Below, in pieces: positions 1 through 37,731 of a DNA stretch of 64,000 nt; the stretch's first letter is position 1; every line of letters starts with the position of its first letter. The notes beneath the pieces are model-generated. The model saw only the letters and a list, made by a program, of their open reading frames with translations, was not told the origin of the DNA and did not search any database. The DNA lies in the NCBI GenBank assembly GCA_963711565.1, contig CAVQEQ010000004.1, forward strand, positions 960,001-1,024,000, given 5' to 3'. Source of the stretch: an uncultured delta proteobacterium (lineage in GTDB: Bacteria; Desulfobacterota; Binatia; Binatales; Binataceae). The position numbers and the translations under genes are program-made.

Positions 1-846
1 ACCGGCAAGATTTCCGAGTTCGCGCCCAAGGCCGAGACGATCATCCATATCGACATCGACCCGTCGTCCATTTCGAAGAACGTCAAGGTCGATATCCCTA
101 TTGTCGGCGATATCAAGTCGGTTCTCACCGACATGCTGACTCAGATCAAAGGCCGCGAGAGTATCGCGAAGCGCCGTGCCGATTGGACGAAGTGGCATCA
201 ACAGATCCTCCAATGGAAGAAGGAGAAGCCGCTCTACGAGAACGGTCATCGCGGCGAGAGCGTTTCCCCGCTCGACGTTATCGCCGAGATGCACAACATC
301 ACGAAGGGCGACTGCATAGTTGCCACCGACGTCGGCCAGCATCAGATGTGGGTCGCGCAGATGTTCCCCTTCGAGAATCCGCGCTCGTGGCTGACCTCGG
401 GCGGCTTGGGCACGATGGGCTACGGACTGCCGGCGGGAATCGGCGCGACCTTCGCCGCCCCCGACAAGAAAGTAGTGGTGGTCTCGGGTGACGGCTCGAT
501 CCAGATGAACATCCAGGAACTGGGGACCGCGGTCCAATACAATGTGGATATCAAAGTTATCATTCTGAATAACTACTTCCTCGGAATGGTTCGCCAATGG
601 CAAGAGAAGTTCTACGCCGAGCGGTATTCGTACTCAGCGATGTCGGTGCCGAACTTCGTCAAGCTCGCCGACGCGTACGGCGCGCGCGGCTTCCGCATCG
701 AGAAAGCGAAAGATCTGGTCGCGACGATGAAGGAAGCATTCGCGACGCCCGGACCGGTGCTGATCAACGTCGTGATCCCGAAGGAAGAGGCCGTGATGCC
801 GATGATTCCGCCGGGCGGCGCTATGTCCGAGATGCTGTTCGCCTGA
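1..846 (+). CDS. ilvB: acetolactate synthase large subunit (5'-truncated by window edge)
   Basis: TDVGQHQMW, TSGGLGTMGYGLP and the TPP-binding GDGS...NN motif; frame runs back to base 1. Confidence 0.95.
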   Translation, partial: TGKISEFAPKAETIIHIDIDPSSISKNVKVDIPIVGDIKSVLTDMLTQIKGRESIAKRRADWTKWHQQILQWKKEKPLYENGHRGESVSPLDVIAEMHNITKGDCIVATDVGQHQMWVAQMFPFENPRSWLTSGGLGTMGYGLPAGIGATFAAPDKKVVVVSGDGSIQMNIQELGTAVQYNVDIKVIILNNYFLGMVRQWQEKFYAERYSYSAMSVPNFVKLADAYGARGFRIEKAKDLVATMKEAFATPGPVLINVVIPKEEAVMPMIPPGGAMSEMLFA

Positions 847-866
847 ACCTGGCTGGAGGTGCACCG

Positions 867-1412
867 ATGGCGGCGCGCGTACCGTATCTGAATCGCGAGG
901 ACCTTCCTGAAGCAGACCGCGTGATCTTCGACAACCTCGCCGCCGAGCGCGGCGGCACCGTCGGCAACATTTTCAAGGCACTGGCGCATACGCCAAATCT
1001 GCTCCGCCGCTTCTGCCAGATAGGCAGCGAGCTTCGCAACAAAACCGCGCTCGACCCAAAACTACGCGAGCTCGCGATCTGCACGGTCGGCCGCCTCACC
1101 GATGCGCAATACGAGTTCGTGCATCATTGGAATATCGCGCGCCGCGTCGGCGTCTCGCGCGATCAGCTCGAAGCGCTCGCCGACTGGGAGAAATCGCCGA
1201 AGTTCAGCGAAATCGAGCGCGCGGTCATTCGCTACGCGGTCGAGGCGACCAATAACATCCGCGTGACCGACGCAACCTGGAACACGCTGAAGACCTTCCT
1301 CGACACGCGCCGCCTAATGGAACTCGTGCAGAACGTCGCCTTCTACAACATGGTCGTGCGCGTGCTGCTGCCGGTCGGCGTCGAGCTGGAGCCGGGCACG
1401 ACCAGGCAATAG
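867..1412 (+). CDS. carboxymuconolactone decarboxylase/AhpD-like family protein
   Basis: GGAGG RBS before ATG 867; LDPKLRELAI...YEFVHH pattern. Confidence 0.85.
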   Translation: MAARVPYLNREDLPEADRVIFDNLAAERGGTVGNIFKALAHTPNLLRRFCQIGSELRNKTALDPKLRELAICTVGRLTDAQYEFVHHWNIARRVGVSRDQLEALADWEKSPKFSEIERAVIRYAVEATNNIRVTDATWNTLKTFLDTRRLMELVQNVAFYNMVVRVLLPVGVELEPGTTRQ

Positions 1413-1414
1413 CG

Positions 1415-2083
1415 ATGGTCAAGACCTTTAATTTCTTCAAGCGCAGGCCGGAGCTGAGTGTAGAGCGCTTCCGCGAGTACTGGCTGAATCAACACGCAGC
1501 AGTGGTCCGGGCAATACCTGAGGTGCGAAAGTACGTCGCGTCGATCGCGTTGCCATCGTCGTATCGCGACAATCACGAGCCGCATTGCGACGGTATTTCC
1601 GAGGCGTGGTTCGACGATGAAGAGACGCTTCGGCGGATCGCCGACACGTCGCCGTTGCGCGCCGCGGTCACTGACGACGCCGTGTTTATCGATACGTCCA
1701 AAGCGGGATCGATCATCACCGACGAGATCGTTCAGAAGGAAGGCGCGCCGCCGAAAGATGCGGTCAAGGTTCTATCGCTGCTCACTCGCAAGGCCGGTAT
1801 GGACGTGGCGTCATTCCAGTCATATTGGCGAACGCATCATGGACCGCTGGCCGCGAAGCTCCCGCAGGCGCGACGCTATGTGCAATGCCATGTGCGTCCG
1901 TCCGGGTATGCCGACGGCCGTACGCCGCGTTATGACGGCGTCGCGGAGATGTGGTTCGACGATTTCGAGGCGGTCCGGGCCTCCGGCAATGCCGATGTCT
2001 ATCGAGACGTACGCGGCGACGAGCCGAAGTTCCTCACCGTTCCGTTACCGCGCGTATTCGCATCGGAACACCGAATCGTGTGA
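1415..2083 (+). CDS. EthD-domain protein (two tandem EthD domains)
   Basis: Two copies of F.xYW..xH.....P..RxYV...DG..E.WFDD. Confidence 0.85.
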   Translation: MVKTFNFFKRRPELSVERFREYWLNQHAAVVRAIPEVRKYVASIALPSSYRDNHEPHCDGISEAWFDDEETLRRIADTSPLRAAVTDDAVFIDTSKAGSIITDEIVQKEGAPPKDAVKVLSLLTRKAGMDVASFQSYWRTHHGPLAAKLPQARRYVQCHVRPSGYADGRTPRYDGVAEMWFDDFEAVRASGNADVYRDVRGDEPKFLTVPLPRVFASEHRIV

Positions 2084-2442
2084 CGCGGGCGCATCCAGAC
2101 TTCTACGAACAGGGAATCGATCTCTTCAACGAGGGACGCTTCTTCGAATGCCATGAGGCGTGGGAGGAAATCTGGAAGCGCTCCGACGGCGCGGAGAAGC
2201 TTTTCTACCAGGGATTGATCCAGGCCGCCGTCGCGATCCTGCACGCGCAGCGCGGAAACGTCGAAGGTGCGCGCTCGCTGTACGAGAAAGCCTCAGCCAA
2301 GCTCGATCCTATTCCCCACGAACACATGGGCTTGGCAGTGGGCGAGTTGCGCATCGAGCTGAGCCGCTTCATCGATATCGCAACCCGCGCAGACGGCACC
2401 GCGCTACCGAACCCGCCGCGTCTGCGTCGAATCGTGAAGTGA
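2080..2442 (+). CDS. DUF309 domain protein
   Basis: GIDLFNEGRFFECHEAWEEIW and YQGLIQAAVA..H; GTG start overlaps upstream TGA. Confidence 0.9.
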   Translation: MTRAHPDFYEQGIDLFNEGRFFECHEAWEEIWKRSDGAEKLFYQGLIQAAVAILHAQRGNVEGARSLYEKASAKLDPIPHEHMGLAVGELRIELSRFIDIATRADGTALPNPPRLRRIVK

Positions 2443-2490
2443 TTCCCGGCGCGTTGATGCGGATTCAATGCGGGAATAGTCTCATCGTTG

Positions 2491-3897
2491 ATGATTCGGG
2501 ACGCTCATAAGACGGTCGTTGGTGCGATCGAGGCGGCGCTTTGGCGCGCGGGGGTTCGTACCGGCTCATCGTTGCTGATCGGACTGTCAGGCGGGGCGGA
2601 TTCGGTTGCGCTTACGTACGTCCTGGTCGAGTTGCGCGAGCGGATGGGGTTGGAAATCTCGGCGGCGCATCTCAACCATCGGATTCGCGGCGCTGAATCG
2701 GATCGCGATGAAGATTTCGTTCGGCGGATGTGCGCGCGGCTCGGTATCGAGTTGATCGTCGAGCGCGCTGACGGGCTTGACGCATCGACTTCGAGTGCGA
2801 ACCTCGAGGAACGTGCGCGCGATGCTCGGCGCGAGTTTCTGTTGCGCGTCACGGATCGAATTCAGGCTGATTTCGTTGCCCTAGGGCACCATCGCGACGA
2901 CCAGGCTGAGACTGTGCTGATGCGTTTGATGCGCGGCGCTGGGGCGGCGGGGATGGCAGCGATGGCCGAGCGCGGGCCCGGACGCCTCATTCGGCCGATG
3001 CTGTCGCTATCGCGCGCCGAGATTCGAGACTACCTTGGCGCGCGCGGGATTTCGTTCGTCGAGGATTCATCGAATTCGTCGCGCGACATTTTGCGCAACC
3101 GGATTCGCGCCGAGCTGCTGCCGATGCTCGAGCGCGACTATGCGCCCGGCCTTGGCGAACGGCTGGTGGAATTGGCGGGCGAAATGCGCTCGCTCGACGA
3201 TCTCGTCACGGCAATCGCGGCGCGCGAACTCGACGCGATGCGCGTCGGCGGTGGCGCGCTCGACGTGTCGGGCTTCGGCGCGATTAATCGCGCAGTGCAG
3301 CCCGCCGCGATCCGGCTGTACCTCGCCGAGTGGATGGGATCGTTGCGCAGAATCTCGCGGGCGCATATCGAGGCGGTGCGCGCGCTTATCCTCGAAGGCG
3401 GTCCGAGCAACTCGATCGATCTTCCGGGCGGCTGGCGCGCCGCGCGCGAGTACAATCTTTTTCGGCTGGTGAATGCGCACGAGCGCAAAGCCCGCGCCCC
3501 TGCATTTTCGGCGGCGATTGCGGCGGACGGAATCACAATCATCGAGGCGGTGGGGTTCAAGTTCGAGGCTTCGACGATTGCCGCGGCGGACGCGTCGATG
3601 CCGGACAGCCTGTCTGTCGCGATATTCGACGCTGCGAAAATTGCCGATACGGGCCTGGTCGCGCGCAATTTCATGAATGGCGACAGGATTCATCCGATGG
3701 GGATGCGCGGCACGCGCAAGGTCCACGACGTGTTCGTCGATCGCAAGCTGCCGCGCGCACGGCGCGAGCGCTTTCCGGTGGTCACGGTCGGCGATACGAT
3801 CGCGTGGATCCCGGGCCTCGCACGCGCCGACTGCGCACTCGTCACCAAGGCCACCGAAACCATACTGCGCGTTGAGGCGTCTGCAATCGCCGCTTAG
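2491..3897 (+). CDS. tilS: tRNA(Ile)-lysidine synthetase
   Basis: SGGADS PP-loop, HLNHRIR, GHHRDDQAET, RNRIR; upstream of ftsH. Confidence 0.95.
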   Translation: MIRDAHKTVVGAIEAALWRAGVRTGSSLLIGLSGGADSVALTYVLVELRERMGLEISAAHLNHRIRGAESDRDEDFVRRMCARLGIELIVERADGLDASTSSANLEERARDARREFLLRVTDRIQADFVALGHHRDDQAETVLMRLMRGAGAAGMAAMAERGPGRLIRPMLSLSRAEIRDYLGARGISFVEDSSNSSRDILRNRIRAELLPMLERDYAPGLGERLVELAGEMRSLDDLVTAIAARELDAMRVGGGALDVSGFGAINRAVQPAAIRLYLAEWMGSLRRISRAHIEAVRALILEGGPSNSIDLPGGWRAAREYNLFRLVNAHERKARAPAFSAAIAADGITIIEAVGFKFEASTIAAADASMPDSLSVAIFDAAKIADTGLVARNFMNGDRIHPMGMRGTRKVHDVFVDRKLPRARRERFPVVTVGDTIAWIPGLARADCALVTKATETILRVEASAIAA

Positions 3898-3908
3898 CGA
3901 TTACCGCG

Positions 3909-3938
3909 TTGCGTGGGCCTCAACCTGCGTGATACTTT
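3909..3938 (+). promoter_or_regulatory. putative sigma70 promoter of ftsH
   Basis: TTGCGT...TGATACTTT in an AT-rich spacer just before ATG 3948; no obvious SD. Confidence 0.35.
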
Positions 3939-3947
3939 TTTAATAGC

Positions 3948-5876
<1,929 letters not shown>

Positions 5877-5981
5877 GCGTCTCGCGGGCGCGCTGGCTCA
5901 CGCTACGACTCATTCGGTTCGCAATTGCGAGTCGGCAACCACGCGCGGGTGAGGGGGTGTGAAGGGAGTGGGGCCGGTGCG

Positions 5982-6920: not shown

Positions 6921-7665
6921 CTACATACCAATGATACCGCAGCCGCGATGGCAGGATGTCGTAGACGTCCTGATCGTCGCGTACGTGATCTACCGGATCG
7001 CGCTTTTGATTCGTGGCACGCGCACGATGCAGATGGTGTTGGGGATGGTGATCGTGGGCGGCGCGTTCGTGGCGTCGCAGGTGCTCGGTCTGTTCACGCT
7101 GAATTGGCTTCTGAATAACTTTCTTGGATCGTTGTTCGTGATCCTGGTGGTAATCTTCCAGGCGGATATTCGGCGCGCGCTGACGCGCGTCGGCGCGCAA
7201 TCCTTCCTGGGCCGCAGCGCGGCGGCGGTCACGCCTGCGGAGGAAATCGCGACGGCGGCGGCATGGCTGTCGGCGCGTAAAATTGGCGCGCTGATCGTGA
7301 TCGAGCAGGACGACGGGCTCGGTGAGTTTGTCGAGAGCGGAAGAATCATTGAGGGCAAGGTCTCGCCGGAACTGCTCGAAACGATTTTCATGAACGGCTC
7401 TCCGCTGCACGATGGCGCGGTAATAATAAATGGCGATCGGGTACTCGCGGCGGCGTGCCTGCTGCCGCTGTCGCAGAATCCCAACGTGAGCCTGTCGCTC
7501 GGCACGCGTCATCGCGCGGCGATTGGCTTGAGCGAGGACAGCGACGCGGTCGTGCTGGTCGTGTCGGAGGAGAGCGGGGCGATTTCGCTTGCGCGCGGCG
7601 GAGTGTTGAGCCGTGGACTGGAGCCGGCCGAGGTTTTGTCCACGCTGAGGAAGCTGCCGGCCTAG
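6913..7665 (+). CDS. cdaA: diadenylate cyclase CdaA (c-di-AMP synthase)
   Basis: Three TM segments; DAC motifs PLHDGAV and GTRHRAA. Confidence 0.93.
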   Translation: MHNYIPMIPQPRWQDVVDVLIVAYVIYRIALLIRGTRTMQMVLGMVIVGGAFVASQVLGLFTLNWLLNNFLGSLFVILVVIFQADIRRALTRVGAQSFLGRSAAAVTPAEEIATAAAWLSARKIGALIVIEQDDGLGEFVESGRIIEGKVSPELLETIFMNGSPLHDGAVIINGDRVLAAACLLPLSQNPNVSLSLGTRHRAAIGLSEDSDAVVLVVSEESGAISLARGGVLSRGLEPAEVLSTLRKLPA

Positions 7666-7701
7666 GGGCGCCGAAGCAAAAAGAGCGAAGGACGACGCAC
7701 G

Positions 7702-8685
7702 ATGAAGCTGGGCGATTTCAATTATCTGTTCGCTGCAAGCAGCTCGCGGCGCCTTCGCGGCGGCGATATCGGGTTACGCATCCTGTCCGTGGTGCTCGCG
7801 GTCGGGCTCTGGATATTCGTCAACGCAGGCGAGCGCGGCTCGGTCGAGTCGCTGACGGTGCCCATAAGCTATGCGTCGCTGCCGCAGGGGATGGTGATCG
7901 TGAACCATCCGCCGACGCAGGTGAAGATCGAAGTTACCGGTCCGCGCACGCTGCTGTCGCTGCTCGATCCCGAGCGCCTCACGCTCAAGATCGATCCGGC
8001 CAGTCTGGCTCCGGGACAGTCCGAGATCAAAGTATATCCCGCGATGTTCAACGTCGGACGAAACACCACGGTGACCAGCATCTCGCCGGATCAATTGTCG
8101 CTCGATATCGATCGCCTGGTTACGCGTGACGTGCCGGTCCATCTCGCGGTCGAGAACGAGGTCGCGCCCGGCTACACGATTTCATCGGTGGATATTACGC
8201 CGCCGAGCGTCACCATGATCGGGCCAAGCCGCTCTGTCTTGCCGCTGACGTTGGTCAGTACTGAGCCGCTCGACTTGAAGGGACTCACTGCGGATACCAG
8301 CCGTTCGGTGGAGATTGTGCCGCCCGATCCGACAATGGGCTTGTCCACCGGTCACGTCGACGTGAAGGTCAACGTGGCGGAGGCGATCACCGACCGTGAG
8401 TTTCGCGCGGTGGACGTTGAGGTCAAGGACAGCGATTTCAAGTATCGCGTCGAACCGAAGCAGGCAACGCTGACGATTCGCGGGCCGGCTGTCAAGCTGG
8501 CGGGCCTCGCACCGAAGGGGTTGGCCTACGTCGACGCCAACGGCCTCGCGCCGGGCTCGCATGAATTGCCGCTGCAGGTGACGGTGCCCGACGGCATGCA
8601 GTTGGTGCGCCAGTCGCCCGACAAGGTTAGACTCCGCATGTATCACGAGAAGCTGACAACTGCGGCCGATGAGCATCCATCGTAA
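7702..8685 (+). CDS. cdaR: YbbR-like CdaA regulator CdaR
   Basis: N-terminal TM then repeated P..V.V.G beta domains; between cdaA and glmM. Confidence 0.88.
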   Translation: MKLGDFNYLFAASSSRRLRGGDIGLRILSVVLAVGLWIFVNAGERGSVESLTVPISYASLPQGMVIVNHPPTQVKIEVTGPRTLLSLLDPERLTLKIDPASLAPGQSEIKVYPAMFNVGRNTTVTSISPDQLSLDIDRLVTRDVPVHLAVENEVAPGYTISSVDITPPSVTMIGPSRSVLPLTLVSTEPLDLKGLTADTSRSVEIVPPDPTMGLSTGHVDVKVNVAEAITDREFRAVDVEVKDSDFKYRVEPKQATLTIRGPAVKLAGLAPKGLAYVDANGLAPGSHELPLQVTVPDGMQLVRQSPDKVRLRMYHEKLTTAADEHPS

Positions 8686-18285: not shown

Positions 18286-19005
18286 ATGGGTGTTGTCAGC
18301 CGAATGAGGGAAGACATCCAGTCGGTCTTCGACCGCGACCCCGCCGCGCGCAACACGCTCGAAGTGGTGCTCCTGTATCCCGGCCTGCACGCCATCTGGG
18401 CCTATCGCGTCGCACATTGGCTCTGGGAGCACAACTGCAAGTTTCTCGGCCGCCTCGTGAGCGAGATCGCGCGGTTCATCACCGGAATCGAGATTCATCC
18501 GGGCGCGAAAATCGGCCGCCGCCTGTTCATCGATCACGGCATGGGCATCGTGATGGGGGAGACGACGGAAATTGGCGACAACGTCCTGCTCTACCAGGGC
18601 GTCACGCTCGGCGGCACCAGTCTCAAGAAAGAGAAGCGGCATCCAACGCTCGAGGATCACGTGATGGTGAGCGCGGGCGCTTCAGTCATCGGTCCGGTGC
18701 GAATCGGCGAGGGCACCCGCATCGGCGCGGGCGCGGTGGTCGTATCGTCGTCGCCGCCTTGGTCAACGGTCGTCGGAATTCCCGGCAAGGTGATCGAGGG
18801 CGACAACGCACGCCACGACGTGATGGAGCTCGATCACGCCAAGCTCCCCGACCCGGTCGCGCGCGCGATGGGCAATCTGATCGAGAAGCTCAACAAGATG
18901 GGTGTGCGGATGGAGGAGATCGAAGAGCGCCAAGACTGCCTCGAAGACAAAGTCAGCGAGCATCTGCCGCCGACTCCCGATCGCATCCTCGCCAACAAGG
19001 GCTAG
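18286..19005 (+). CDS. cysE: serine O-acetyltransferase
   Basis: [26 protein letters not shown] hexapeptide repeats. Confidence 0.96.
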
Positions 19006-22625: not shown

Positions 22626-23716
22626 AGCCGCGAGTTCTCGTCGCAATGTCGGGCGGAGTGGACAGTTCCGTCGCGGCGGCGATTCTGCGCGAACAGGATT
22701 ACGACGTCGTCGGTGTCGCGATGCGTCTTGCGCCCGAGCCGTCCACGCCAATCGCGAAGCGGCGCGGCACCTGCTGCTCACATGACGACTTCGAAGATGC
22801 GCGCCGGGTCGCGGAGCGGATGGATTTTTCGTTCTATGTGATCGATTTGCGCGCCGACTTTGCCGCGCGCGTGGTCGATAACTTCGTTTCCGAATATCTC
22901 GGCGGCCGCACGCCGAATCCCTGCGTGATGTGCAATCGCGAGATCAAGTTCGATCGCTTGTGGAGCCGCGCGCGCGCGCTGGACGCCGAGTACGTTGCGA
23001 CCGGGCATTACGCGCGGATAGAGCAAGATGCTGACGGCAGGTTTCATCTGCTGCGCGCGGCCGACGACACCAAGGATCAGTCGTACTTTCTATTCACGCT
23101 TGGGCAGGACGAGCTCTCGCGCACAATTTTTCCGCTCGGCTCGATGACCAAGACTGAGGTTCGCGCGCGCGCCCGAGCGCTGGGGCTGGTGACCGCGGAC
23201 AAGCCGGAGAGCCAGGAAATATGCTTCGTCCCCGACGGCGACTACGCGAGTTTTGTCGAGCGGCGAAGCGATCCAGCCCAACTGCGTCCCGGCTCGATTA
23301 TCGACGGCGAAGGAAAGCGCTTGGCGGATCATGCCGGCGTGCATCTATTCACCGTCGGACAGCGCCGCGGCCTGGGTATCGCGAGTGGCGAGCGGCTGTA
23401 CGTTCGCGAGATTCGAGCCGCGTCTGGCGAGGTCGTAGCCGGGCGCCGCGAGGAGCTCGATTCTTCGGGTTTGATCGCGAATCGAGTCAGCCTGGTCGAT
23501 GATTCGATCGCGTCGGGCGGCGAGTTGAGCGTCGAAGTTAAGATTCGCTATCGGCATCGCGCGCTCCCGGCGACCATGCGCGTCGATTCGGCGCGGCGCG
23601 CCGAGATTCGTTTCGTGTCCAGTGGTCCCGCAGTGACACCCGGACAGGCGTGCGTCTTCTATCGCGGCGAGGAAGTGCTCGGCGGCGGATTTATCGAGCG
23701 GGCGCTGGAGGGCTGA
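22622..23716 (+). CDS. mnmA: tRNA 2-thiouridylase MnmA
   Basis: [38 protein letters not shown]. Confidence 0.97.
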
Positions 23717-26618: not shown

Positions 26619-28066
26619 CGAATCCGCGCAAAGCGCCGGGCGCCGAGGCGCGGCGAATTGCCGCCGAAGGTCTGCCTGCCGTGGTGCTCGTTGGCCGTGC
26701 GAATGCGGGCAAGTCCACGCTGTTCAATCGAATTGCGAAAGGCGGGCGCGCGATTACCAGTGCGATTCCCGGCACCACGCGCGATCTGAATTTCGCGCGC
26801 GCAAAATACGGTGACCGTGAATTTGTCGTAATCGACAGCGGCGGCCTGGAGCTCGGCGGCCATGAGCGGATGACGGAGCGTATCGTCGCCGAGGCGCTCG
26901 CCGCCGTCGGCGTCGCTGACGTGGTCGTCTTCATGCTCGACGGCAGGGGCGGCCTGAGCGAGGCCGACGCCGAGGCGCTCGCGCTCGTGCGCGAGACCGG
27001 ATGCCCGCTGATCGTTGCGGTCAACAAGATCGATCGGCCGGGCCAGGAGGCCGAGGCGTCCGAATTCTACTCGCTCGGCGCCGACGAATTGTTTTTCATC
27101 TCGGCGGCGCATGGGCGCGGAGTTGACGAGCTGCTCGATCAAGTGGTCGCGCGGCTGCCCGAGCGCGAAGGCGTCGCGGCGGCAGTTCCGGATTTGAGGC
27201 TCGCTCTGATCGGCCGGCCCAACGTCGGGAAATCGTCGCTGCTCAATCGCCTGTCGGGATTCGAGCGCGCGATCGTGGACGACACTCCCGGCACGACGCG
27301 CGATCCGGTGGACGTGCGGTTGACTTCGGGCGGCCGCGACGTGCTGCTGATCGACACTGCGGGAATACGCAGGCCACCACGCGTCGAGGGTGAGCTCGAG
27401 CATCATTCGGTCGGCCGCGCGATCGAAACGATTCGGCGCGCCAACGTCGTGCTGCTGGTGATCGACGCGAGCGAAGGAATCACCGACCAGGACGCGCGGC
27501 TGGCGCGGCTGGTGGACAGCAACGATCGCGCGATGGTGATTGTGTGCAACAAGTGGGACGTTGCGGCGAAGGCGGGGCGCAAGGTCGCCACTTTTGTCCG
27601 CGATGCGCACGAGCGCTACCCGTTCCTCGAGTACGCATCGATGGTATTCACGTCGGCGGTGACGGGCGACGGCGTCAACGGCATCATCCCGGCGGCAACG
27701 CAGGCGGGCGATTCGTGGCGCGCGGTTTTTCAGACGTCGCGGCTGAATCGCACGCTGGCCGAGGCGACCGCCGCGATGGACCCGCCGCAAGTCGATCGGC
27801 GCCGCTTGAACCTGATGTACGTGACGCAGGTCGGCAACGCGCCGCCGCGTCTTCGATTTTTCACCAACGTCGAACGCGGCATCCCGGCGCACTACATTCG
27901 ATTCATTGAAACGCGATTTCGAAAATCGCTGGGACTGGTCGGTACTCCGCTGCGGCTCGATTTTCGGCGCACCGGCCGCTCGTGGGTGCAAGGTGCTCCG
28001 CCGCGACCAACGCGCGGCAAGCCGCGCAACCGTCCCGCGCCGCGAACCAAACCAGCGCGCGCGTAG
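26615..28066 (+). CDS. der: ribosome biogenesis GTPase Der
   Basis: Two G domains (GRANAGKS, GRPNVGKS), GTTRD twice. Confidence 0.96.
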   Translation: MTNPRKAPGAEARRIAAEGLPAVVLVGRANAGKSTLFNRIAKGGRAITSAIPGTTRDLNFARAKYGDREFVVIDSGGLELGGHERMTERIVAEALAAVGVADVVVFMLDGRGGLSEADAEALALVRETGCPLIVAVNKIDRPGQEAEASEFYSLGADELFFISAAHGRGVDELLDQVVARLPEREGVAAAVPDLRLALIGRPNVGKSSLLNRLSGFERAIVDDTPGTTRDPVDVRLTSGGRDVLLIDTAGIRRPPRVEGELEHHSVGRAIETIRRANVVLLVIDASEGITDQDARLARLVDSNDRAMVIVCNKWDVAAKAGRKVATFVRDAHERYPFLEYASMVFTSAVTGDGVNGIIPAATQAGDSWRAVFQTSRLNRTLAEATAAMDPPQVDRRRLNLMYVTQVGNAPPRLRFFTNVERGIPAHYIRFIETRFRKSLGLVGTPLRLDFRRTGRSWVQGAPPRPTRGKPRNRPAPRTKPARA

Positions 28067-28094
28067 GTTATCCGTGATGCGAATTTTCCAACCA

Positions 28095-28400: not shown

Positions 28401-29930
28401 GTGATCCTGATTCTTGATTTCGGCAGCCAGTACACGCAGCTAATCGCGCGCCGCGTGCGCGAAGCGAACGTGTATTGCGAAATCCATCCGTTCAACTTCG
28501 CGCCCGAAAAAATCCGCGCGATGAATCCGCGAGGAATTATTCTGTCCGGTGGACCGGCGAGCCTGTACGAAGAGAATGCGCCAGACATTTCCGACGAAGT
28601 GCTGAATCTCGGCTGCCCGGTGCTGGGAATCTGCTACGGACTATACGTGATCGCGCGGCACATGGGCGCGCACAGTGTAGGCTCGCGTCAACGCGAGTAC
28701 GGACCCGCGACGCTGGTGATCGACGGCGACGACCTGCTGTTCGAGGGACTTAGCGGACGCGAGCATCGCGTATGGATGAGTCACGGCGATCGCGTCGAGG
28801 CGATTCCGGGCGCGCTGTGCGCGATCGCGCACAGTGACAACTCGCCGTACGCGGCGTTCAAGTCGCGCGACGGGCGCATGCGCGGAATCCAGTTTCATCC
28901 CGAGGTCGTGCACACGCCGTGCGGCGCGCAGGTGCTGCGCAACTTCGTGTTGAAAATCTGTGGCGAGCGCGGCGATTGGACGATGGCGAATTTTGTCGAG
29001 ACGAAACTCGCCGAGATTCGCAAGCAGGTCGGCCCGACCGACAAGGTGCTGATGGGATTGTCGGGCGGCGTCAACTCTTCCGTGGCGGCCGCGCTGATTC
29101 ATCGCGCGATCGGCTCACGGCTGCATTGCGTGTTCGTCGACACTGGACTGCTGCGCGCGGGCGAGCGCGAACGGATGGAAAATACGTTCGCCGGCCAGCT
29201 CGGGATCGATCTCAAGGTTACCGATGCGTCCGAGCTTTTTTTGTCGCGGCTGGCGGGCGTGCTCGACCCCGAGCAAAAGCGGCGTATCATCGGCCACACC
29301 TTCATCGACGTGTTCGAATCCGAGGAGGTCGTCAAGGGCGCGCGATTTCTCGGCCAGGGCACGCTCTACCCCGACGTGATCGAATCGGTGTCCTTCAAGG
29401 GTCCATCGGCGGTGATCAAGAGTCATCACAATGTCGGCGGATTGCCGGAGCGGATGCGCCTGGAACTCGTCGAACCGTTGCGCGAGCTGTTCAAGGATGA
29501 GGTCCGCGAAGTCGGCCGGCAGCTTGGGCTGGCGGCTGAAGTCGTTGAGCGGGAGCCCTTTCCCGGACCCGGTCTGGCGGTGCGAATCGTCGGCGAGGTC
29601 ACGCGCGAGCGGCTCGATCTGTTGCGGCGCGCCGACGCGATCGTGATGGAAGAAACCGCTGCCGCCGGCTTCGGACTCAAGCTGTGGCAGGCGTTCGCGG
29701 TGTTGTTGCCGCTCAAGACGGTCGGCGTGATGGGCGACGGGCGCAGCTACGAAAGCGTGATCGCAATTCGCGCGGTCGAGTCAATGGACGGGATGACGGC
29801 GGATTGGGCGCGCCTGGAGCCGGCCTTTCTTGCGCGCGTCTCGAGCCGAATCACCAACGAGGTCAAGGGCGTCAACCGTGTCGTTTACGACATCACGTCG
29901 AAGCCGCCGGCGACGATCGAGTGGGAATGA
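28401..29930 (+). CDS. guaA: GMP synthase (glutamine-hydrolysing)
   Basis: ILDFGSQY, GICYG, QFHPEV, IKSHHNV, KPPATIEWE. Confidence 0.97.
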   Translation: MILILDFGSQYTQLIARRVREANVYCEIHPFNFAPEKIRAMNPRGIILSGGPASLYEENAPDISDEVLNLGCPVLGICYGLYVIARHMGAHSVGSRQREYGPATLVIDGDDLLFEGLSGREHRVWMSHGDRVEAIPGALCAIAHSDNSPYAAFKSRDGRMRGIQFHPEVVHTPCGAQVLRNFVLKICGERGDWTMANFVETKLAEIRKQVGPTDKVLMGLSGGVNSSVAAALIHRAIGSRLHCVFVDTGLLRAGERERMENTFAGQLGIDLKVTDASELFLSRLAGVLDPEQKRRIIGHTFIDVFESEEVVKGARFLGQGTLYPDVIESVSFKGPSAVIKSHHNVGGLPERMRLELVEPLRELFKDEVREVGRQLGLAAEVVEREPFPGPGLAVRIVGEVTRERLDLLRRADAIVMEETAAAGFGLKLWQAFAVLLPLKTVGVMGDGRSYESVIAIRAVESMDGMTADWARLEPAFLARVSSRITNEVKGVNRVVYDITSKPPATIEWE

Positions 29931-31378
29931 CTGTGCCGGTTCGCACGCGCTTCGCGCCGAGCCCGACCGGCTCGCTCCACATCGGCAACGTTCGCTCGGG
30001 CCTATTCGCCTACCTGTACGCGCGTCACAACCACGGCCAGTTCATCCTGCGCGTCAACGACACCGATCGCGAACGATCGACGAAACAGTCGCTCGAGGAA
30101 ATTCTCGCGGATTTGAAATGGCTCGGGATGGAATGGGACGAGGGTCCGCCCGACGAGGCATACTTTCAGACCAATCGAGTCGAACGCCATCGTGAAGCCG
30201 CGTTGAAACTTTTGCGCGAGCGCAAGGCGTATCCTTGCTACTGCTCGACGGAGGAACTCGACGCCAAGCGCAAGCAGGCCGAGCGCGAGCGTCGCCGGCC
30301 GGTTTACGATCGCAAGTGCCGCGGGCTCGACTGCCCCGCGGACTTGCCGCTGCCCGACAAATCTGCCGGCCGGAACTATACGATTCGGTTCGCAATGCCC
30401 CTCGATGGCGAGACGATCGTCAACGATCTCGTGAAAGGCCGGATGGTCTTTCAGAATAGCGAGCTCGACGACTTCATCATCGTGCGCTCGGACGGCTCGC
30501 CGATTTACAACTTCGCGAGCATCCTCGACGACGTGGATATGCAAATCACGCACATCGTTCGCGGCGACGATCACGTGTCGAATACGCCGCGTCAGATGCA
30601 GATGGCGTACGCGCTCGGCTTCACGCCGCCCGCGTTCGCGCATCTGCCGCAGGTGCTGGGGCCCGACGGATCGCCGCTCTCGAAACGCCACGGCGCAACG
30701 TCGGTGATCGCTTATCGCGAGAACGGTTACTTTCCGGAGGCGATGCTGAACTACCTCGCGCGCCTCGGATGGTCGCACGGCGACCAGGAAATTTTCTCGA
30801 AGGATGAGCTGATCAACTTCTTTGGCTTCGAGGCGTGCGGAAAGTCGGCCGGCGTATTCAACGCCGAGAAATTGCTCTGGCTCAATTTCCATTACCTGAA
30901 GGAGCGGCCGCTACCGCGGCTCGTGGCCGAAATCAAGCCATTCATCGCTCAACGCGGATGGCCGATTCCGGGCGACGACGCGTGGCTCGAAAAGGCCGTC
31001 GCTACTCTGCACGAGCGCGCCAAGACGCTGGTCGAGTTGGTGGACTTCGCGTCGTTCTACTTGAAAGACGACATCGCGACAGATTCCAAGGCGGCGGCGA
31101 AATTCCTGAAGCCCGAAATCGCCGAGCCTCTGCGCGCGTTGGCCGCCGAGATCGAATCCCACGAGGGAGAAGTCTCCGAGGCGTCGGTGCAGGCCGTGTT
31201 CGAATCTGTTCTCGCGCGTTTCAACCTCAAACTCGGACAACTCGCGCAGCCGGTCCGCGTCGCGCTCACCGGCGGCACCGTCAGTCCCGGGATTTACGAG
31301 GTGATCGCGGTCCTGGGTAAACGACGCACCGTCGATCGCCTGAACGCCGCCGTCCGCCTGATCGTGCCGACCGCTTAG
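29927..31378 (+). CDS. gltX: glutamate--tRNA ligase
   Basis: RFAPSPTG.LHIG, RGDDH, LSKR; ATG overlaps guaA TGA. Confidence 0.97.
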   Translation: MTVPVRTRFAPSPTGSLHIGNVRSGLFAYLYARHNHGQFILRVNDTDRERSTKQSLEEILADLKWLGMEWDEGPPDEAYFQTNRVERHREAALKLLRERKAYPCYCSTEELDAKRKQAERERRRPVYDRKCRGLDCPADLPLPDKSAGRNYTIRFAMPLDGETIVNDLVKGRMVFQNSELDDFIIVRSDGSPIYNFASILDDVDMQITHIVRGDDHVSNTPRQMQMAYALGFTPPAFAHLPQVLGPDGSPLSKRHGATSVIAYRENGYFPEAMLNYLARLGWSHGDQEIFSKDELINFFGFEACGKSAGVFNAEKLLWLNFHYLKERPLPRLVAEIKPFIAQRGWPIPGDDAWLEKAVATLHERAKTLVELVDFASFYLKDDIATDSKAAAKFLKPEIAEPLRALAAEIESHEGEVSEASVQAVFESVLARFNLKLGQLAQPVRVALTGGTVSPGIYEVIAVLGKRRTVDRLNAAVRLIVPTA

Positions 31379-31379
31379 A

Positions 31380-31914
31380 TCACTTCGTACTCGTCGGTGG
31401 TAGCACGAGGATCTGCCCGTTCATCTCCGGCTGATGTACCGTACAGTAGAAGTCGAAGATTCCGTCTTTGTGAAATGTGAACACGTAGGACGTTCTTGGT
31501 GAGCGGTGCCAGCTTCAGATGCAACAGTACTGCTGAATCCGGCGCAGTGAGCATGAAGTCGTGCTCGTCGTCAGACTGCAGATTCCAGAACGTGAGCATC
31601 GTCGGCACGTCGCGATGAACCGCGATAAACGTTGGCGAGAATGCGTAAACCTCGCCGAATTTCACCACCGTCTCCTTCGGCCCCGTCTCCTTGATCGCGA
31701 CCGCCTCCGTCAGAATGGTCACCTGCGCCTCCGCGATGCCCGTTTTCGCGACGGACACGATCTTTGACGCGGCCGCATCCGGCAGGTAGAAGTGCTTGTC
31801 CATCGGCGGCATGGACCCAGCACTCGCGACGGCCCTCAACGCGAGCAATATTGCCGGTACGGCTGCTGCCGGAACTCGACGCCAAATTGCGCGAGCCACT
31901 TCCCAGTTACTCAT
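31380..31914 (-). pseudogene. secreted cupredoxin-domain protein with an apparent 1-nt frameshift near 31493
   Basis: Signal peptide, FSP..I.V...N...EHDF; the shifted frame gives FDFYCTVHQPEMNGQILV (C-H-M copper ligands); may be a sequencing error. Confidence 0.8.
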
Positions 31915-31934
31915 CCAAATAGTACCTTGATTGC

Positions 31935-32537
31935 ATGAGTGTACTCGTACCATACGTAGTCGAGCAGACCGGCCGCGGCGAGCGTTCTTACGACATCTAT
32001 TCGCGCTTGCTCAAGGACCGGATCGTTTTCCTGGGCGGCACCGTGACCGACGATCTCGCCAACCTGGTCACCGCACAACTGCTGTTCCTCGAGTCCGAGG
32101 ATCCCGAGCGCGAAATCAACATGTACATCAACTCGCCGGGTGGCTCGGTCACCGCCGGCCTGGCAATCTACGACACGATGCAATTCGTGAAGCCTCCCGT
32201 CTCGACGCTGTGCGTAGGCCAGGCCGCCAGCATGGGATCGCTCCTGTTGGCCGCGGGAGCCAAGGGCAGGAGATACTCGCTGCCGCACTCGCGAATACTG
32301 ATCCATCAGGTCTCCGGCGGCTTCGAGGGGCAGGCCAGCGATATCGAGATTCACGCACGCGAGGCTTTGCGTCTTCGCGAAATCCTCAACGACATTCTTG
32401 CTCATCACACCGGCCAGAACGTTAAGAAGATCGAAAAGGATACCGACCGCGACAACTTCATGTCCGCGGCGCAGGCCGTCGAGTACGGACTTATCGACGA
32501 AGTGATTGCGGGGCGGCCGATCAAGGCCTCGCTCTAG
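31935..32537 (+). CDS. clpP: ATP-dependent Clp protease proteolytic subunit
   Basis: [29 protein letters not shown]. Confidence 0.98.
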
Positions 32538-32561
32538 CCGATAAACGGGCCGCGCTCGCCC

Positions 32562-35066
32562 ATGGACGCGCAACACATTCTCGAAAGCCCGGCAATCGAA
32601 AAGGTCGAACGGTTCCGAATTCGCGGCATGCACTGCGCGAATTGCGCGGACACAATTGAAAAGGCCGTCGCGCCGATTCCCGGCGTCATCGACGCCCATG
32701 TGAATTTCGCCGCCGAGACGCTTACCGCACGCGTCACCGACGAACTTGCAGCCGGTACGATAGAGGCGAAGGTCGCGGCCGCCGGCTACAGCGCGGTCGC
32801 CGAGACGGGAATCGTTGGCGCGGGCGAATCGGCCCTTGATCGCCTCGACGCGCGCCGCAACCTGGAGTGGGTGATCGCGAGTGCGATTGGCGCCGCCGTT
32901 GTCATGTATCTGCAGGACGGCGAGAGCCTCGCCGCGCGCATCGCGACGCTGGTCGTCGCCAGCGCGCTGATGTTCACCGCCGGCCTGACGTTTTACCGCG
33001 GCGCGTGGATGGCCGCGCGCAACCGCACCGCGAATATGGATACCCTGGTCGCGCTCGGAATCAGCGCGGCGTACCTTTATTCGATCCTCACGACATTCCC
33101 GGAAGTGTTCTTCGCCGGTCCGCGATTCTTCGATACCGCTATCGAGCTGATCCTTTTCATTCGCTTCGGTAAATTGCTCGAGGCGCGCGCTCGCGGCCGG
33201 GCGATGGCGGCGTTGCGGTCCTTGCTGACGCTGGTCCCCGATGTCGCAACGATGGTGCGCGACGGTAAGGAGTTCGTCGTGCCGGTTTCTGAGTTGGCCG
33301 TCGGCGACATCGTGCTGGTCAGGCCGGCGTCCAGAATTCCGGTTGACGGTGTGATAGTCACCGGCGCCAGCGCCATCGACGAGTCGATGCTCACGGGCGA
33401 GTCGATGCCGCTCGACAAGGCGGCGGGCGCCGAGGTTTCAGGCGGCACCCTTAACACCGCGGCCGCGATCACGGTGCGTGCGACGCACGTTGGCTCTGAG
33501 ACTGTGCTTGCGCAGATCGTCAGAATGGTTGCGGACGCGCAGGGCGACAAGGCTCCGATTCAGCGCGTCGCCGATGCGGTTGCCGCGCGATTCGTGCCCG
33601 CAGTGATCGCGATCGCGATCTTCACTTTCATCGCGTGGATGTGGCTCGGCCCAAGTCTCGTGATGGCGTTGACGGCGATGACCGCGGTGCTGGTGATCGC
33701 GTGCCCGTGCGCGATGGGACTGGCGACTCCGACCGCGCTCATGGTTGGCAGCGGGCTCGGTCTGCGCAGCGGAATCCTGTTCAAGCGGGCTTCGGCGCTC
33801 GAGTTGATTACGAAAATCCGCGTCATTCTGTTCGACAAGACCGGTACTCTGACCGCCGGCAGGCCGGAACTCGAGGCGATTGTCACGCTCGACGGCGACC
33901 AAAATAGTGCGCTGTCCTTCGCCGCAGTCGCCGCCGCCGGCTCGATTCATCCGCTGTCGCGAGCGGTCACTGCCGGCGCGCAAGCACGAAATCTCGCCCC
34001 TCAGTCCACTCCCGAAAACTCGCTCGAGAAACCGGGCATGGGCGTTACCGCCGAGCATCAGGGAAAGCAGATTGCGCTCGGCAACGACCGTCTGATGACG
34101 GAAGTCGGCGCCAGTATCGATTCTCGCGCCCGCGACGAGGCCGCACGCATTGCGGCATCTGCGGCGACGCCATTGTTCCTCGCGATCGATCGCAAAATAG
34201 CCGCGGTGCTGGCTTTCCGCGATCCCGTCAAACCCGAGGCGCGCGGCGCGATCGCGGCTCTCCATCGTATGGGCATCCGCGCCGTGATGATTTCCGGCGA
34301 CAATACCGAGGTTGCCAAAACCGTTGCTGCCCGGTTGGGAATCGACGAGTTCCACGCGCAATTGATGCCCGCCGACAAGATTGCGCTGGTTAAGCGCTAC
34401 CAGGAGGCTGGCCAGTTCACCGCGATGGTCGGCGACGGTATCAACGACGCGCCCGCATTGGCGGCCGCCGATATCGGCATCGCGATCGGCTCGGGCACCG
34501 ACGCCGCCAAGGAGACCGGCAACGTCGTGCTCACGCGCGACGACTTGTACGACATCGTGCGCGCGCTGGTGCTCGGCCGCCTGACGCTGAATAAGGTGAA
34601 GCAAAATCTTTTCTGGGCTTTTTTCTACAACGTCCTCGGGATTCCGATCGCCGCCGGCGTCCTGTATCCATCATTTGGAATCATGCTGAACCCCGCGCTG
34701 GCCGGACTTGCGATGGCGCTGTCGAGCGTCAGCGTCGTCAGCAACGCGCTGCTGCTGAATTTAACCGGCCCGCGCAAGTTGGCGGCGGTGGATGCCGAAG
34801 TCGAAGCAGGGCAGGGCACGCCTCCGATTTCTTCAACACTTCCGCAGGTGCGGAGCGGAACTACTGAAAAGAGGGAGACTGCGGTGGCAACCAAACTCAA
34901 GTGCGAGAAGTGCGGCGCCGAGACCGCGATGCCGATGCATTGCAATCGCCCGATGCATTCCGAACAGGTCGGCGCCGAAACCAAACTGGTATGCTGGATG
35001 GGTCCCGATTGCGGCGTCGCCGACGTTCCCAAGCATTGCGGCGCACCGATGCACGACGCGGCCTAG
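32562..35066 (+). CDS. copA: P1B-type Cu(I)-translocating ATPase with C-terminal Cys/His-rich extension
   Basis: HMA motif GMHCANC, TGES, CPC, DKTGT, HP, GDGINDAP, YN and MxxSS. Confidence 0.93.
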   Translation: MDAQHILESPAIEKVERFRIRGMHCANCADTIEKAVAPIPGVIDAHVNFAAETLTARVTDELAAGTIEAKVAAAGYSAVAETGIVGAGESALDRLDARRNLEWVIASAIGAAVVMYLQDGESLAARIATLVVASALMFTAGLTFYRGAWMAARNRTANMDTLVALGISAAYLYSILTTFPEVFFAGPRFFDTAIELILFIRFGKLLEARARGRAMAALRSLLTLVPDVATMVRDGKEFVVPVSELAVGDIVLVRPASRIPVDGVIVTGASAIDESMLTGESMPLDKAAGAEVSGGTLNTAAAITVRATHVGSETVLAQIVRMVADAQGDKAPIQRVADAVAARFVPAVIAIAIFTFIAWMWLGPSLVMALTAMTAVLVIACPCAMGLATPTALMVGSGLGLRSGILFKRASALELITKIRVILFDKTGTLTAGRPELEAIVTLDGDQNSALSFAAVAAAGSIHPLSRAVTAGAQARNLAPQSTPENSLEKPGMGVTAEHQGKQIALGNDRLMTEVGASIDSRARDEAARIAASAATPLFLAIDRKIAAVLAFRDPVKPEARGAIAALHRMGIRAVMISGDNTEVAKTVAARLGIDEFHAQLMPADKIALVKRYQEAGQFTAMVGDGINDAPALAAADIGIAIGSGTDAAKETGNVVLTRDDLYDIVRALVLGRLTLNKVKQNLFWAFFYNVLGIPIAAGVLYPSFGIMLNPALAGLAMALSSVSVVSNALLLNLTGPRKLAAVDAEVEAGQGTPPISSTLPQVRSGTTEKRETAVATKLKCEKCGAETAMPMHCNRPMHSEQVGAETKLVCWMGPDCGVADVPKHCGAPMHDAA

Positions 35067-35075
35067 CAGATCGCG

Positions 35076-35858
35076 TTGTTCCAACACTGGTTTCTGCTCC
35101 CCGTCGGCGTTGCGATCAGCACGCTCGTGATGTCGGCGGGCGTGTCGGGCGCGACACTCTGGGTGCCCGTCTATCTGTTGTGGCTCAAGCTCGAAGCGCC
35201 GGTTGCGTTTTGGCTGGGGTTGCTCACGATGCTGTTCGGGTTTGGCAGCGGCGTCACTCGCAACTTTCGCGACGGTACTTTCGATGGCGTCCTCGTCCGT
35301 CGCTACCTGCTCGTCGCGGTTCCCGCGGCCCTCGTCGGCGGATGGGTGTCAGGCTCGGTCAATCAGGCGTTGCTCGTCGCGCTCTTCGGCGCGTTTCTCA
35401 TTGTGTATGCGATCGTGATTGGCGGCCGCGCACTTGGGATGCGCAGCGACAGCGATCGCCACGACCGGGTTCCTGTCTCAATCGCACTGACAGGCGGCGC
35501 GCTCACGGGGCTCATCTCGATCGGAATTGGAATCCTGGCGATGCCCTCCGTGGTGGGTCACCGAGCGAGCCGTTCGCCCGGCGCCGCGATCGGATCCCTT
35601 GTCATGATTATCTTTTTCACCAGCCTGGCGGCGGCCATTGGCCGAATGCGTCCGTCGCTCATCTCGGAGTTGCGGCGCGACTCCACGCAGATCATCGCGA
35701 TCGCAATCTGGGCGGTGCCGGGAGTTATAGTCGGCGGACAGATCGGTCCGCGCATCGCGCAGATGCTCCCGTCAGAACGTCACGCGCGCTTGTACTGCAG
35801 CGCGATTTTGCTGGTCGTCGGCGTACTGACTCTGGTCCGCGCAGCCGCGATCCGCTAG
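35076..35858 (+). CDS. TauE/SafE family membrane protein
   Basis: Multiple TM segments, G.SG...P repeat, G.I.G..IG. Confidence 0.75.
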   Translation: MFQHWFLLPVGVAISTLVMSAGVSGATLWVPVYLLWLKLEAPVAFWLGLLTMLFGFGSGVTRNFRDGTFDGVLVRRYLLVAVPAALVGGWVSGSVNQALLVALFGAFLIVYAIVIGGRALGMRSDSDRHDRVPVSIALTGGALTGLISIGIGILAMPSVVGHRASRSPGAAIGSLVMIIFFTSLAAAIGRMRPSLISELRRDSTQIIAIAIWAVPGVIVGGQIGPRIAQMLPSERHARLYCSAILLVVGVLTLVRAAAIR

Positions 35859-35859
35859 A

Positions 35860-36087
35860 GCAGCGTATCACGTCGCCGATGCCGTTTGCGCTCACGTCGT
35901 TGACTCGATCGTCGAAGCGATGGTCTCCCAGGCGCGTCGCCCGCTCGGGATAGAGTTGCATCTCGGCCTGAACAAATTCAGAGACTTGCTTTCTGAACGC
36001 GCGATTCGGCGCCGACGCGGTTTGCGCAATCGCCGGCGTGCAGACTGAGACGACCAGCACGATCGCGAGATGAGCGGCTATCTTCAT
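35860..36087 (-). pseudogene. truncated DUF885 family secreted protein (N-terminal remnant)
   Basis: Signal peptide then PERATRLGDHRFDDR, typical of DUF885 N-termini; similarity ends at the convergent TauE stop. Confidence 0.6.
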
Positions 36088-36101
36088 CGCGAGCTGAGGC
36101 G

Positions 36102-36842
36102 CTACTTCAGCGTGCCTGCGAACAATTCCGTCAACTTGTCGAACGCGCGGTCGGCTTGCGGCTGGTTGTAAACCGGAGCGTCCGGCACCGTCCAGCCATG
36201 GAACGCGCCTTCGTACACTTCGCTTTGATATTTTCCGCCCCACGCCGCGAGCGCGCGATCGAACTTTTCGATCACTTCCGGAGGCATGCTGCGGTCCTTG
36301 GTCGCGTGTCCGAAGTAGAGCCGCGCCTTGATCCGTGGCAACACCAGATGCGGGCTCGTCGGCTCGTCGGTATAGAGGCCGCCGCCGTGGAATGACGCCA
36401 CCGCCGCAACTTTGTCAGGCATCGCGGCCGCCGTGCGCATCGCGAAGGACCCCGTGAAGCAGTAGCCGACGACGCCGATCGATCCCGCGCTGACGGCACT
36501 ATGCTCCGCGAGAAAATTGACGTAAGCCTTCCCGTCGCGCTCGACCGCTTCAGGAGTCATCGGTGCCCGCAGCTCGCCAAATCGCTTCATGGTGCGCTCA
36601 TCGCCCATCCCAATCGTGACGTCGATAACCGGCGGCTTGGTCGTGCGATAGAACACGTTGGGCATCAGCACGGTGTAACCTTTCTCGGCCAGCCGCTTCG
36701 CCATCTCGCGATGCGACGGGCGGATGCCGCCGATGTCGGTCAAATGGATCGCCCCCGGCGACCGCCGCGCGCCTTCCGCCCGATAGAGAAAACCGTCAGC
36801 GGTCCCGTCCGGTGTGCGAATTTCAATTGCTTCTTCGATCAT
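36102..36842 (-). CDS. dienelactone hydrolase family protein
   Basis: TPDG, DIGGIR, GYCF nucleophile elbow, SFHGG, HGW. Confidence 0.92.
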   Translation of the reverse strand: MIEEAIEIRTPDGTADGFLYRAEGARRSPGAIHLTDIGGIRPSHREMAKRLAEKGYTVLMPNVFYRTTKPPVIDVTIGMGDERTMKRFGELRAPMTPEAVERDGKAYVNFLAEHSAVSAGSIGVVGYCFTGSFAMRTAAAMPDKVAAVASFHGGGLYTDEPTSPHLVLPRIKARLYFGHATKDRSMPPEVIEKFDRALAAWGGKYQSEVYEGAFHGWTVPDAPVYNQPQADRAFDKLTELFAGTLK

Positions 36843-36945
36843 AATTCTCTCCTTCAATTCCTGCGGGTGAGTCCGATCCATATACCACAGAGCAGGGAGT
36901 TCCGGCGCTTTCATCGAAGGGATAGGGCTGGGACTATGGCAATTG

Positions 36946-37731
36946 ATGCCGAGCCGGACTCATCAATTCTACGCGGTGGCCTTCGAGGAAAACTTCTCGC
37001 TCCGCCAGATTGCGCCCGCGTTTCCCGAAGCGAGAACGTCACCGCTCGAGCTGTTTGTGCCGATCGAGTCCGACGGCGGCCTCTACATCTTTCCCTTCGG
37101 CGCCATCGTCACGCACGACGTTCCGGTCGATCAGCGCGAGCGCATCTTCGGACGCCTCACCCAGGTCCTGCCAAAACTCACCACCCGCATCATCCGAGAG
37201 GATTACTCCGTGCTCGAAGATCCCGAGGCGCCGATCGGCATTTCCGCCGGGATGCTTCGCGTCAACAAGCTCACGCCGCAGCGCGCGGGAATCGTCGCGC
37301 TGACGGTCGCCCAGAGCGCCGCGATGGAATACTACGAGCGCATCGTGGACAGCCTTTTCGCACGGACCGCGCAGTTGGTCGATCGGATGGCATCGAAGGG
37401 CACTGTGCCCTACCGGATTACCCCGCTGCATCGCTTCATCGGCGAGGCGATTTCGTCGCGCACAGAAGTTCTCGCCGTCCTTCACCTGCTCGACAAGCCC
37501 GACGCCGCGTGGGAAGACCCCGCGATGGATCTCATCTACGACGACCTGCGCGACGAATTCGATCTCGTCGATCGCTACGCCGCGCTGACCAGCAAGCTGC
37601 AGAGCATCCAGGACTCTCTCGTGCTGGTCCTCAACGTCGCGCGCGATCGCCGCCTGGTATTGCTCGAAGTCATCGTCGTGCTGCTGATCCTGCTCGAGAT
37701 TATCTTGGGCGTCATACACTTCACCTCGTAA
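36946..37731 (+). CDS. RMD1/DUF155 family protein
   Basis: F.FGAIV, AQS..MEYYE, LLDKPD..WE, FDL.DR, LE.I C-terminal TM. Confidence 0.88.
   Translation: MPSRTHQFYAVAFEENFSLRQIAPAFPEARTSPLELFVPIESDGGLYIFPFGAIVTHDVPVDQRERIFGRLTQVLPKLTTRIIREDYSVLEDPEAPIGISAGMLRVNKLTPQRAGIVALTVAQSAAMEYYERIVDSLFARTAQLVDRMASKGTVPYRITPLHRFIGEAISSRTEVLAVLHLLDKPDAAWEDPAMDLIYDDLRDEFDLVDRYAALTSKLQSIQDSLVLVLNVARDRRLVLLEVIVVLLILLEIILGVIHFTS

Follow-up and report, generated by a model that had tools for sequence, protein, structure and literature searches.

The window, meaning the whole stretch of 64,000 nucleotides that was analysed, spans positions 960001 to 1024000 of contig C4 of G000, a 4.84-Mb genome in four contigs. 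The protein clusters of its relatives are named Candidatus Binatus, and its best DNA matches are soil metagenomes. Among the genes of the window are ilvB, ftsH, lysC, der, guaA, gltX, copA, and an RMD1-like gene, assignments with which Pfam agrees in all cases but ftsH, which is named through its protein cluster. These genes contain nine AAC codons (at 766, 4407, 15841, 15847, 27443, 29073, 30056, 34521, and 37633) that the original prediction had described as recurrent asparagines at conserved, normally acidic residues, and all nine are indeed present in the peptides concerned. In an alignment with up to 15 related genomes, eight of the sites carry G in every aligned relative, while the ninth, in der, does not belong to the pattern.

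All sites are given on the plus strand of the window, with the changed base in brackets. A stands for G at C[G]ACGTC in ilvB (766, Asp to Asn, G in 5/5 relatives), in FtsH (4407, Asp154 to Asn, 15/15), at the first Asp of the T-D-V-D-G motif of LysC (15841, 14/14), in CopA (34521, Asp to Asn, 5/5), and in the RMD1-like gene (37633, Asp to Asn, 12/12), and the last, which had been regarded as the weakest case, is as good as the others. The second palindrome, GTC[G]AC, is changed at the second Asp of the same LysC motif (15847, 14/14), in the PP-loop SGGVDS of GuaA (29073, 12/12), and in the R-x-D-D-T-D motif of GltX (30056, 12/12). Public cluster proteins, counted where they span the residue, have Asp at the GuaA position in 14/14 cases and at FtsH Asp154 in all 13 that hold the motif. 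FtsH Asp154 is also Asp in 29/29 other loci, and the CopA position is Asp in the 16 pattern-matching loci of 19 fetched. At 27443, A is found in 12 of 13 relatives and Asn in all 11 covering cluster proteins, and Asn277 of Der is therefore genuine and had been included as a false positive. The mnmA SGGVDS motif at 22649..22666, coded GTG GAC and proposed as a control, is intact.

The alignments also revealed sites that had been overlooked. These are T for C at GACGT[C]G at 8252 (a G-to-A change on the minus strand, YbbR Ser184 to Leu), A for G at C[G]ACGTC at 18580 (Asp to Asn, G in 11/11 relatives), and A for G at GTC[G]AC at 27677 (Der Asp355 to Asn, Asp in 12/12 covering cluster proteins) and at 37264 in the RMD1-like gene (G in 12/12 relatives). 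Beyond the range described before lies 56730 (A for G at GTC[G]AC, ClpA Asp688 to Asn), where 14/14 cluster proteins have Asp, two of them differing from the window's ClpA at only 2 residues. In addition, A for G is found at GTC[G]AC at 30422 (GltX, Asp to Asn) and at C[G]ACGTC at 50212, where a gene on the minus strand changes from Ser to Leu (G in 7/7 relatives). YbbR residue 184 is Ser in 7/7 cluster proteins, one of which, P0216 (12 contigs; JGI, Logan, and others), differs there only. In total, 21 positions of the window match the pattern in comparison with relatives, including some ordinary silent changes. Outside the window, a segment that we take to be of the LysM family (L031:243-1382) reads GDTLLNVG, possibly another miscalled Asp.

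Where it was compared, DNA of the same species from other samples carries the usual base. The comparison with public runs was made with assembled contigs from four runs of two studies, which are other samples and may be other strains, and its figures around 29073-30422 rest on the best 40 of 49 matches. Positions 29073, 30056, and 30422 are G in 4/4 runs, with the whole depth of the respective contig in support, one run having a depth of 2.5 at 30422, and the last position had been predicted from relatives before the run contigs were compared. In three runs, pieces of 325, 454, and 485 bases differ from the window at 29073 only. Near-identical public proteins have the usual residue at YbbR 184, Der 355, and ClpA 688, whereas Asn residues shared with relatives in the same contexts remain Asn in cluster proteins. 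The Asn forms of FtsH, GuaA, CopA, and ClpA occur only under NCBI/ENA in public protein sets. Since the samples may represent other strains, this comparison shows the changes to be private to the assembly but does not by itself make them false. A scan of JGI metagenomes with a 24-base stretch of the window gave no matches. In two blocks, 1550-2450 and 29440-30330, the window diverges by 3-6% from some runs with near-identical flanks, which suggests segments recombined within the species.

Genuine Asn codons restored by adenosine-to-inosine RNA editing or by recoding would be conceivable in that the codons are restorable, but nothing more speaks for this explanation. It is refuted by the G in the DNA contigs of other samples, and editing of AAC codons would not explain that silent positions and the template strand (Ser to Leu, Arg to Gln) are affected as well. 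We regard its probability as negligible.

The sequence context is much narrower than CGACG or CGTCG, the motif proposed originally. Two palindromes are affected, GTCGAC and, where a C precedes it, GACGTC (0/24 in other GACGTC contexts), and the G strand of both reads C[G]AC. At the two palindromes, about 45% of the conserved sites carry a change, versus about 1% at other CGACG or CGTCG sites. Missense G-to-A changes are found at 32/72 and 27/62 positions inside the two palindromes compared to 29/2633 other CGAC positions, and outside GTCGAC and CGACGTC only 13/1246 CGACG and 7/1083 CGTCG sites are affected in this way. In a three-way comparison (271 kb aligned; 400 kb supplied from G007 and as much from G003), changes at codon positions 1 and 2 that only G000 has amount to 33/74 for GACGT[C]G and 28/64 for GT[C]GAC versus 2.0% overall, and to 18/1290 for other CGTCG sites. 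In an unbiased k-mer scan both palindrome contexts rank as the top two (P about 1e-18 each). Thus, the expected enrichment of G-to-A changes by k-mer is strong, but it resides in GTCGAC and C-GACGTC. All 59 changes at the 134 motif positions are to A and none to another base. Neither GWCGWC nor GTMKAC serves as a joint motif: GT[C]GTC (5/141) and GA[C]GAC (4/184) are at about background, and GTAGAC has two testable sites only. After removal of both motifs, a context scan found no third error motif beyond common amino-acid exchanges. The palindrome CAGCTG is depleted genus-wide (0.42 in G000, 0.34-0.56 in relatives with at least 160 kb fetched), and no error signature was found at it. The corresponding value for GTAGAC/GTCTAC in G000 is 0.53.

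In a stricter set, restricted to columns in which at least six other genomes agree at 90%, missense changes amount to 11/24 and 11/23 and silent changes to 2/4 and 3/7 at the two motifs, with a background of 0.6% missense and 4.8% silent. Missense changes are thus about as frequent as silent ones at the motifs, which argues for an absence of purifying selection. Twelve other genomes show missense changes at the same motifs in only 1/167 and 1/253 cases. Both positions of one palindrome are changed in 2 instances versus 9 expected (P 0.09), and double changes at CGACGTCG number 0 versus about 4 expected by a hand calculation (25 x 3 / 18). Such scarcity of double changes is as a vote of strand versus strand would give.

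The changes follow the orientation of the deposited file. At motif positions, missense G-to-A changes are found in 50/89 cases on the plus strand of the contigs and in 9/45 on the minus strand, while background G-to-A changes are symmetric (418 plus versus 416 minus). The same bias is visible without any reference. Genome-wide, CAACGTC occurs 1211 times on the plus and 674 times on the minus strand, a stronger asymmetry than in any other of the 5080 7-mer pairs, and each of the four contigs has the excess in the same direction. No other of the 47 genomes compared comes near the asymmetry of G000 (z 9.2 and 5.4). When in-frame counts are taken separately for genes on either strand, both motifs show the bias and the controls are symmetric. 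Of the 26 bins of 200 kb, 25 have a positive in-frame bias, including those holding and following dnaA, and the bias is unrelated to the polarity of GC skew (13 bins positive, 13 not; rho -0.25, P 0.22). Because the deposited plus strand is a convention of the file, replication, transcription, or a deaminase should not be able to produce this bias. A bias that follows file orientation and depends on neither gene direction nor GC skew points to errors of the consensus. Scaled from the relative-based fractions, about 620 and 520 bases would be wrong at the two motifs, or roughly 1,100 in the genome (about one per 4 kb), which is a rough figure. A plus-strand excess of CAACGTCG is also seen in G060 (386:292, z 3.6), whose genome is 82% complete.

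Real hypermutation in the sampled population and private to its strain, through deamination of methylated cytosine, which had been named as an alternative with 5-methylcytosine (5mC) in mind, or through a motif-directed deaminase, is hard to reconcile with these data. In its favour, the change amounts to C-to-T on one of the strands, the genome has C5 methyltransferases, and the contrary bases come from other samples and not from the source sample's own reads. However, a mutational process would have to track an arbitrary file strand on 4/4 contigs, in 25/26 bins, on both gene strands, and under both signs of skew, to hit missense positions as often as silent ones, and to alter invariant residues of GuaA, LysC, GltX, and FtsH all together, while contigs and proteins of the same species keep the usual base. 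Premature stops found with a first model numbered zero. A better model gave one candidate against two intact in-frame sites. That a single candidate was found would be in line with hypermutation, but with so few sites the test has little power. The candidate lies at G000:C3:699,702 on the minus strand, where an in-frame TGA within GTTGAC breaks a coding-like frame, and may be a false stop caused by the same error. Altogether, we consider hypermutation very unlikely.

Ordinary avoidance of restriction sites in the lineage would be another way to lose GTCGAC, and the palindrome is depleted in many relatives (observed-to-expected ratio, O/E, of 0.08 to 0.75), so that part of the depletion in G000 (O/E 0.24) is real. 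Depletion as such was rejected as evidence for the errors since relatives are equally or more depleted. As the cause of the Asn codons, avoidance is refuted by the G in run contigs and by the motif statistics. The loss in relatives is not missense at conserved Asp and has no file-strand bias (CGTCAACG 323:332 in G003), and in G003 GTCGA[C] is changed to T in 21/26 cases at third codon positions versus 3/12 at positions 1 and 2. This explanation is even less probable than hypermutation. GTCGAC is strongly avoided in the stretches of G003, G007, G014, and G002 (O/E 0.08-0.19), in G003 and G007 mostly by a third-position change of GAC to GAT. No XamI nuclease was found in G003, G007, and G014, and the avoidance may go back to an earlier GTCGAC system or to one of another kind.

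The changed bases are therefore very probably nanopore consensus errors at a G directly 5' of a probable N6-methyladenine (6mA) and private to this assembly. The preferred reading of the original prediction, an error of basecalling or consensus at a methylated motif, is supported by the contigs and proteins of other samples, the k-mer scan, and the file-strand bias. In the proposed mechanism, the cell would methylate both palindromes on both strands, and the G just before the methylated adenine (C-G-6mA-C) would be read as A. Reads of the G-bearing strand would miscall whereas reads of the opposite strand would call C correctly, and the consensus call at the nearly tied pile-up would lean towards the orientation of the contig itself.

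The genome encodes many methyltransferases, among which candidates for both motifs are found. At 1,099.7-1,102.3 kb of contig C3, a XamI-family endonuclease (PF09572, E 7e-112), which we take to recognise and cut GTCGAC, adjoins an NPPY methyltransferase (PF07669) whose sequence is also present in JGI and Logan. At 499.7 kb of contig C1 lies P0001, an unannotated beta-class methyltransferase (PF01555) with a DPPY motif, the adenine-type catalytic motif, next to the nuclease-like P0016, for which no Pfam or NCBIfam family matched. Homologues and atlas entries offered only generic names and unnamed clusters for the GACGTC enzyme. The P0001 family is very large and uncharacterised (7998 matches among 7999 candidates scored). 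The XamI-family system is likely to make GTCG(6mA)C, and the DPPY enzyme is a somewhat favoured candidate for G(6mA)CGTC. Each motif contains one A per strand, so adenine methylation would force C-G-6mA-C in both, and if both enzymes methylate adenine, the miscalled G precedes 6mA in both motifs, which favours 6mA over 5mC. According to passages of the respective papers, the adenines of GTCGAC are the methylation targets of M.SalI (PMC3708114), and M.AatII produces G(m6A)CGTC (PMC3287169). The present motifs are the same palindromes as those of these XamI/SalI-type and AatII-type activities, with the 6mA right after the miscalled G. The passages of PMC3424549 and PMC3542200 on XamI describe it as a Type II enzyme and do not give its site. 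The candidate GACGTC enzyme is likened to M.AatII by its presumed motif.

P0016 itself seems to be affected. Its Gln175 lies in GTCAAC, so that a second reading frame gives the same result, and is Arg in 6/7 other in-frame members, the seventh being an ENA entry from a long contig with Gln. The cluster members P0018, P0022, and P0025 shift frame near the same C-terminal stretch, and one of them retains Gln175.

The same artefact could arise through a methylated cytosine (5mC or N4-methylcytosine, 4mC), either the C that precedes the G or the one two positions behind it. The C5 methyltransferase that was to be looked for is represented by three loci in the genome, an SPPY enzyme (SPPY being a 4mC-type motif) is present too, and 5mC enzymes acting on GTCGAC exist according to passages of PMC5005818. 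However, no C5 or SPPY enzyme is linked to either motif, the XamI system offers a direct adenine route for GTCGAC, and both motifs fit the single rule of a G before 6mA. In addition, one C5 gene, beside a GIY-YIG nuclease (G000:C1:1,043.4 kb, L033 about 2140), has a frameshift in the file at a run of seven C, which is probably a homopolymer error. Granted the artefact, 6mA is the likely modification, in place of the 5mC assumed originally, and modified cytosine an unlikely one; the cytosine route as a complete explanation is slightly less probable still.

That the signature of errors travels with the enzymes was predicted before the counts across genomes. The XamI system is found in 7/47 genomes, of which G002 is the only other carrier aligned at depth, its platform not being on record, and P0001 homologues are found in 14/47. 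The carrier G007 shows a weak signature (16/98 versus 2/109 in G003). The six highest CAACGTCG/CGACGTCG ratios among the 47 genomes all belong to P0001 carriers, and a rank test gives P 0.021 without G000, although kin are not independent. In G060, with its plus-strand excess, no P0001 homologue was found at E 1e-60 in the 82% complete genome. G061 has a P0001 homologue with an in-frame TAG (G061:C1:795,391-796,239) and no site loss. In G002 and G007, a 75-77% identical methyltransferase is paired with a partner of about 200 amino acids unlike P0016 (L191:900-1529, L192:2366-2959), and the partner in G007 has no Pfam family match. Two nuclease families possibly serve one site in G000 and in G002/G007.

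Several observations weigh against the explanation by consensus errors. The verdict rests on contigs of other samples, possibly of other strains, and not on reads of the source sample, and only three sites were compared on run contigs. In a comparison of run contigs over 20 kb, 766 lies in the range covered by the best 40 of 457 matches and has no entry there; the long pieces among them start at 798 and 814, so that 766 may not be covered, and none of the four target sites is found among the matches listed. A native nanopore platform is inferred from the four large contigs and the frameshift at the run of seven C. After dnaA, the raw counts of the two strands are nearly even (37:30 and 66:68). 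In addition, the prediction failed in part. G002 carries both systems and has no signature (0/14 and 0/11 in the stricter set), G006 shows 1/14 in the same set, G007 has 0/14 missense changes in it, and 5/14 P0001 carriers are in the lower half of the CAACGTCG/CGACGTCG ratios. In carrier genomes lacking the signature, the error could be masked by depth, chemistry, or polishing.

This class of artefact is already published, and the present case shows its testable properties. Methylation-induced G/A and C/T ambiguities in nanopore assemblies have been described by Lohde et al. (10.1101/2023.09.15.556300), and, as far as the passages of that work go, the present errors resemble them in the purine-purine swap, the RA/TY minimal context, RACG as in GACGTC, and strain-specific motifs. 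There, raw reads were used and the motif was not tied to a methylase, whereas here the assembly by itself yields two full palindromes, with about 45% of the sites miscalled. Passages on Hammerhead (PMC11610603) describe strand-specific G2A/C2T mismatches at modified sites as measured on reads. The error is likewise on the G-bearing strand with the opposite strand correct, but only its footprint in the consensus is seen here, and a plus-strand file bias is not mentioned in those passages. Modpolish, according to passages of PMC10687267, found 1533-5670 modification-mediated mismatches in Listeria assemblies and corrected them by homologues. Similarly, more than 1,000 motif-bound mismatches per genome (about 1,100 here) become visible through the conservation in relatives, while its motifs are GCAGC and GCTGG and its genomes isolates, in contrast to an uncultured soil genome. 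Nanopore errors at the two motifs were not found in the literature searched, which was covered in part and without supplements, and term look-ups in the available passages of PMC11610603 and PMC11649196 name neither motif.

Almost certainly, the Asp-to-Asn pattern is an artefact and not a feature of the organism. G000 is a species representative with about 1,100 motif-bound wrong bases, in which catalytic residues appear as false loss-of-function or recoding, and the wrong bases have passed into public protein sets. Single-base claims at GTCAAC/GTTGAC or CAACGTC/GACGTTG in this genome need checking. Tentatively, the excess of a k-mer over its reverse complement on the file strand may suffice to read a methylome and to flag about 1,000 wrong bases without reads, and the P0001 family, to which G(6mA)CGTC would then be assigned, may together with its nucleases of no known family represent new AatII-like systems, but we would not yet count on either. 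As biology, the Asp-to-Asn pattern is empty and its value is that of a warning. The by-products are a cheap, reference-free test for errors and, for a soil bacterium that is not in culture, two probable 6mA motifs.

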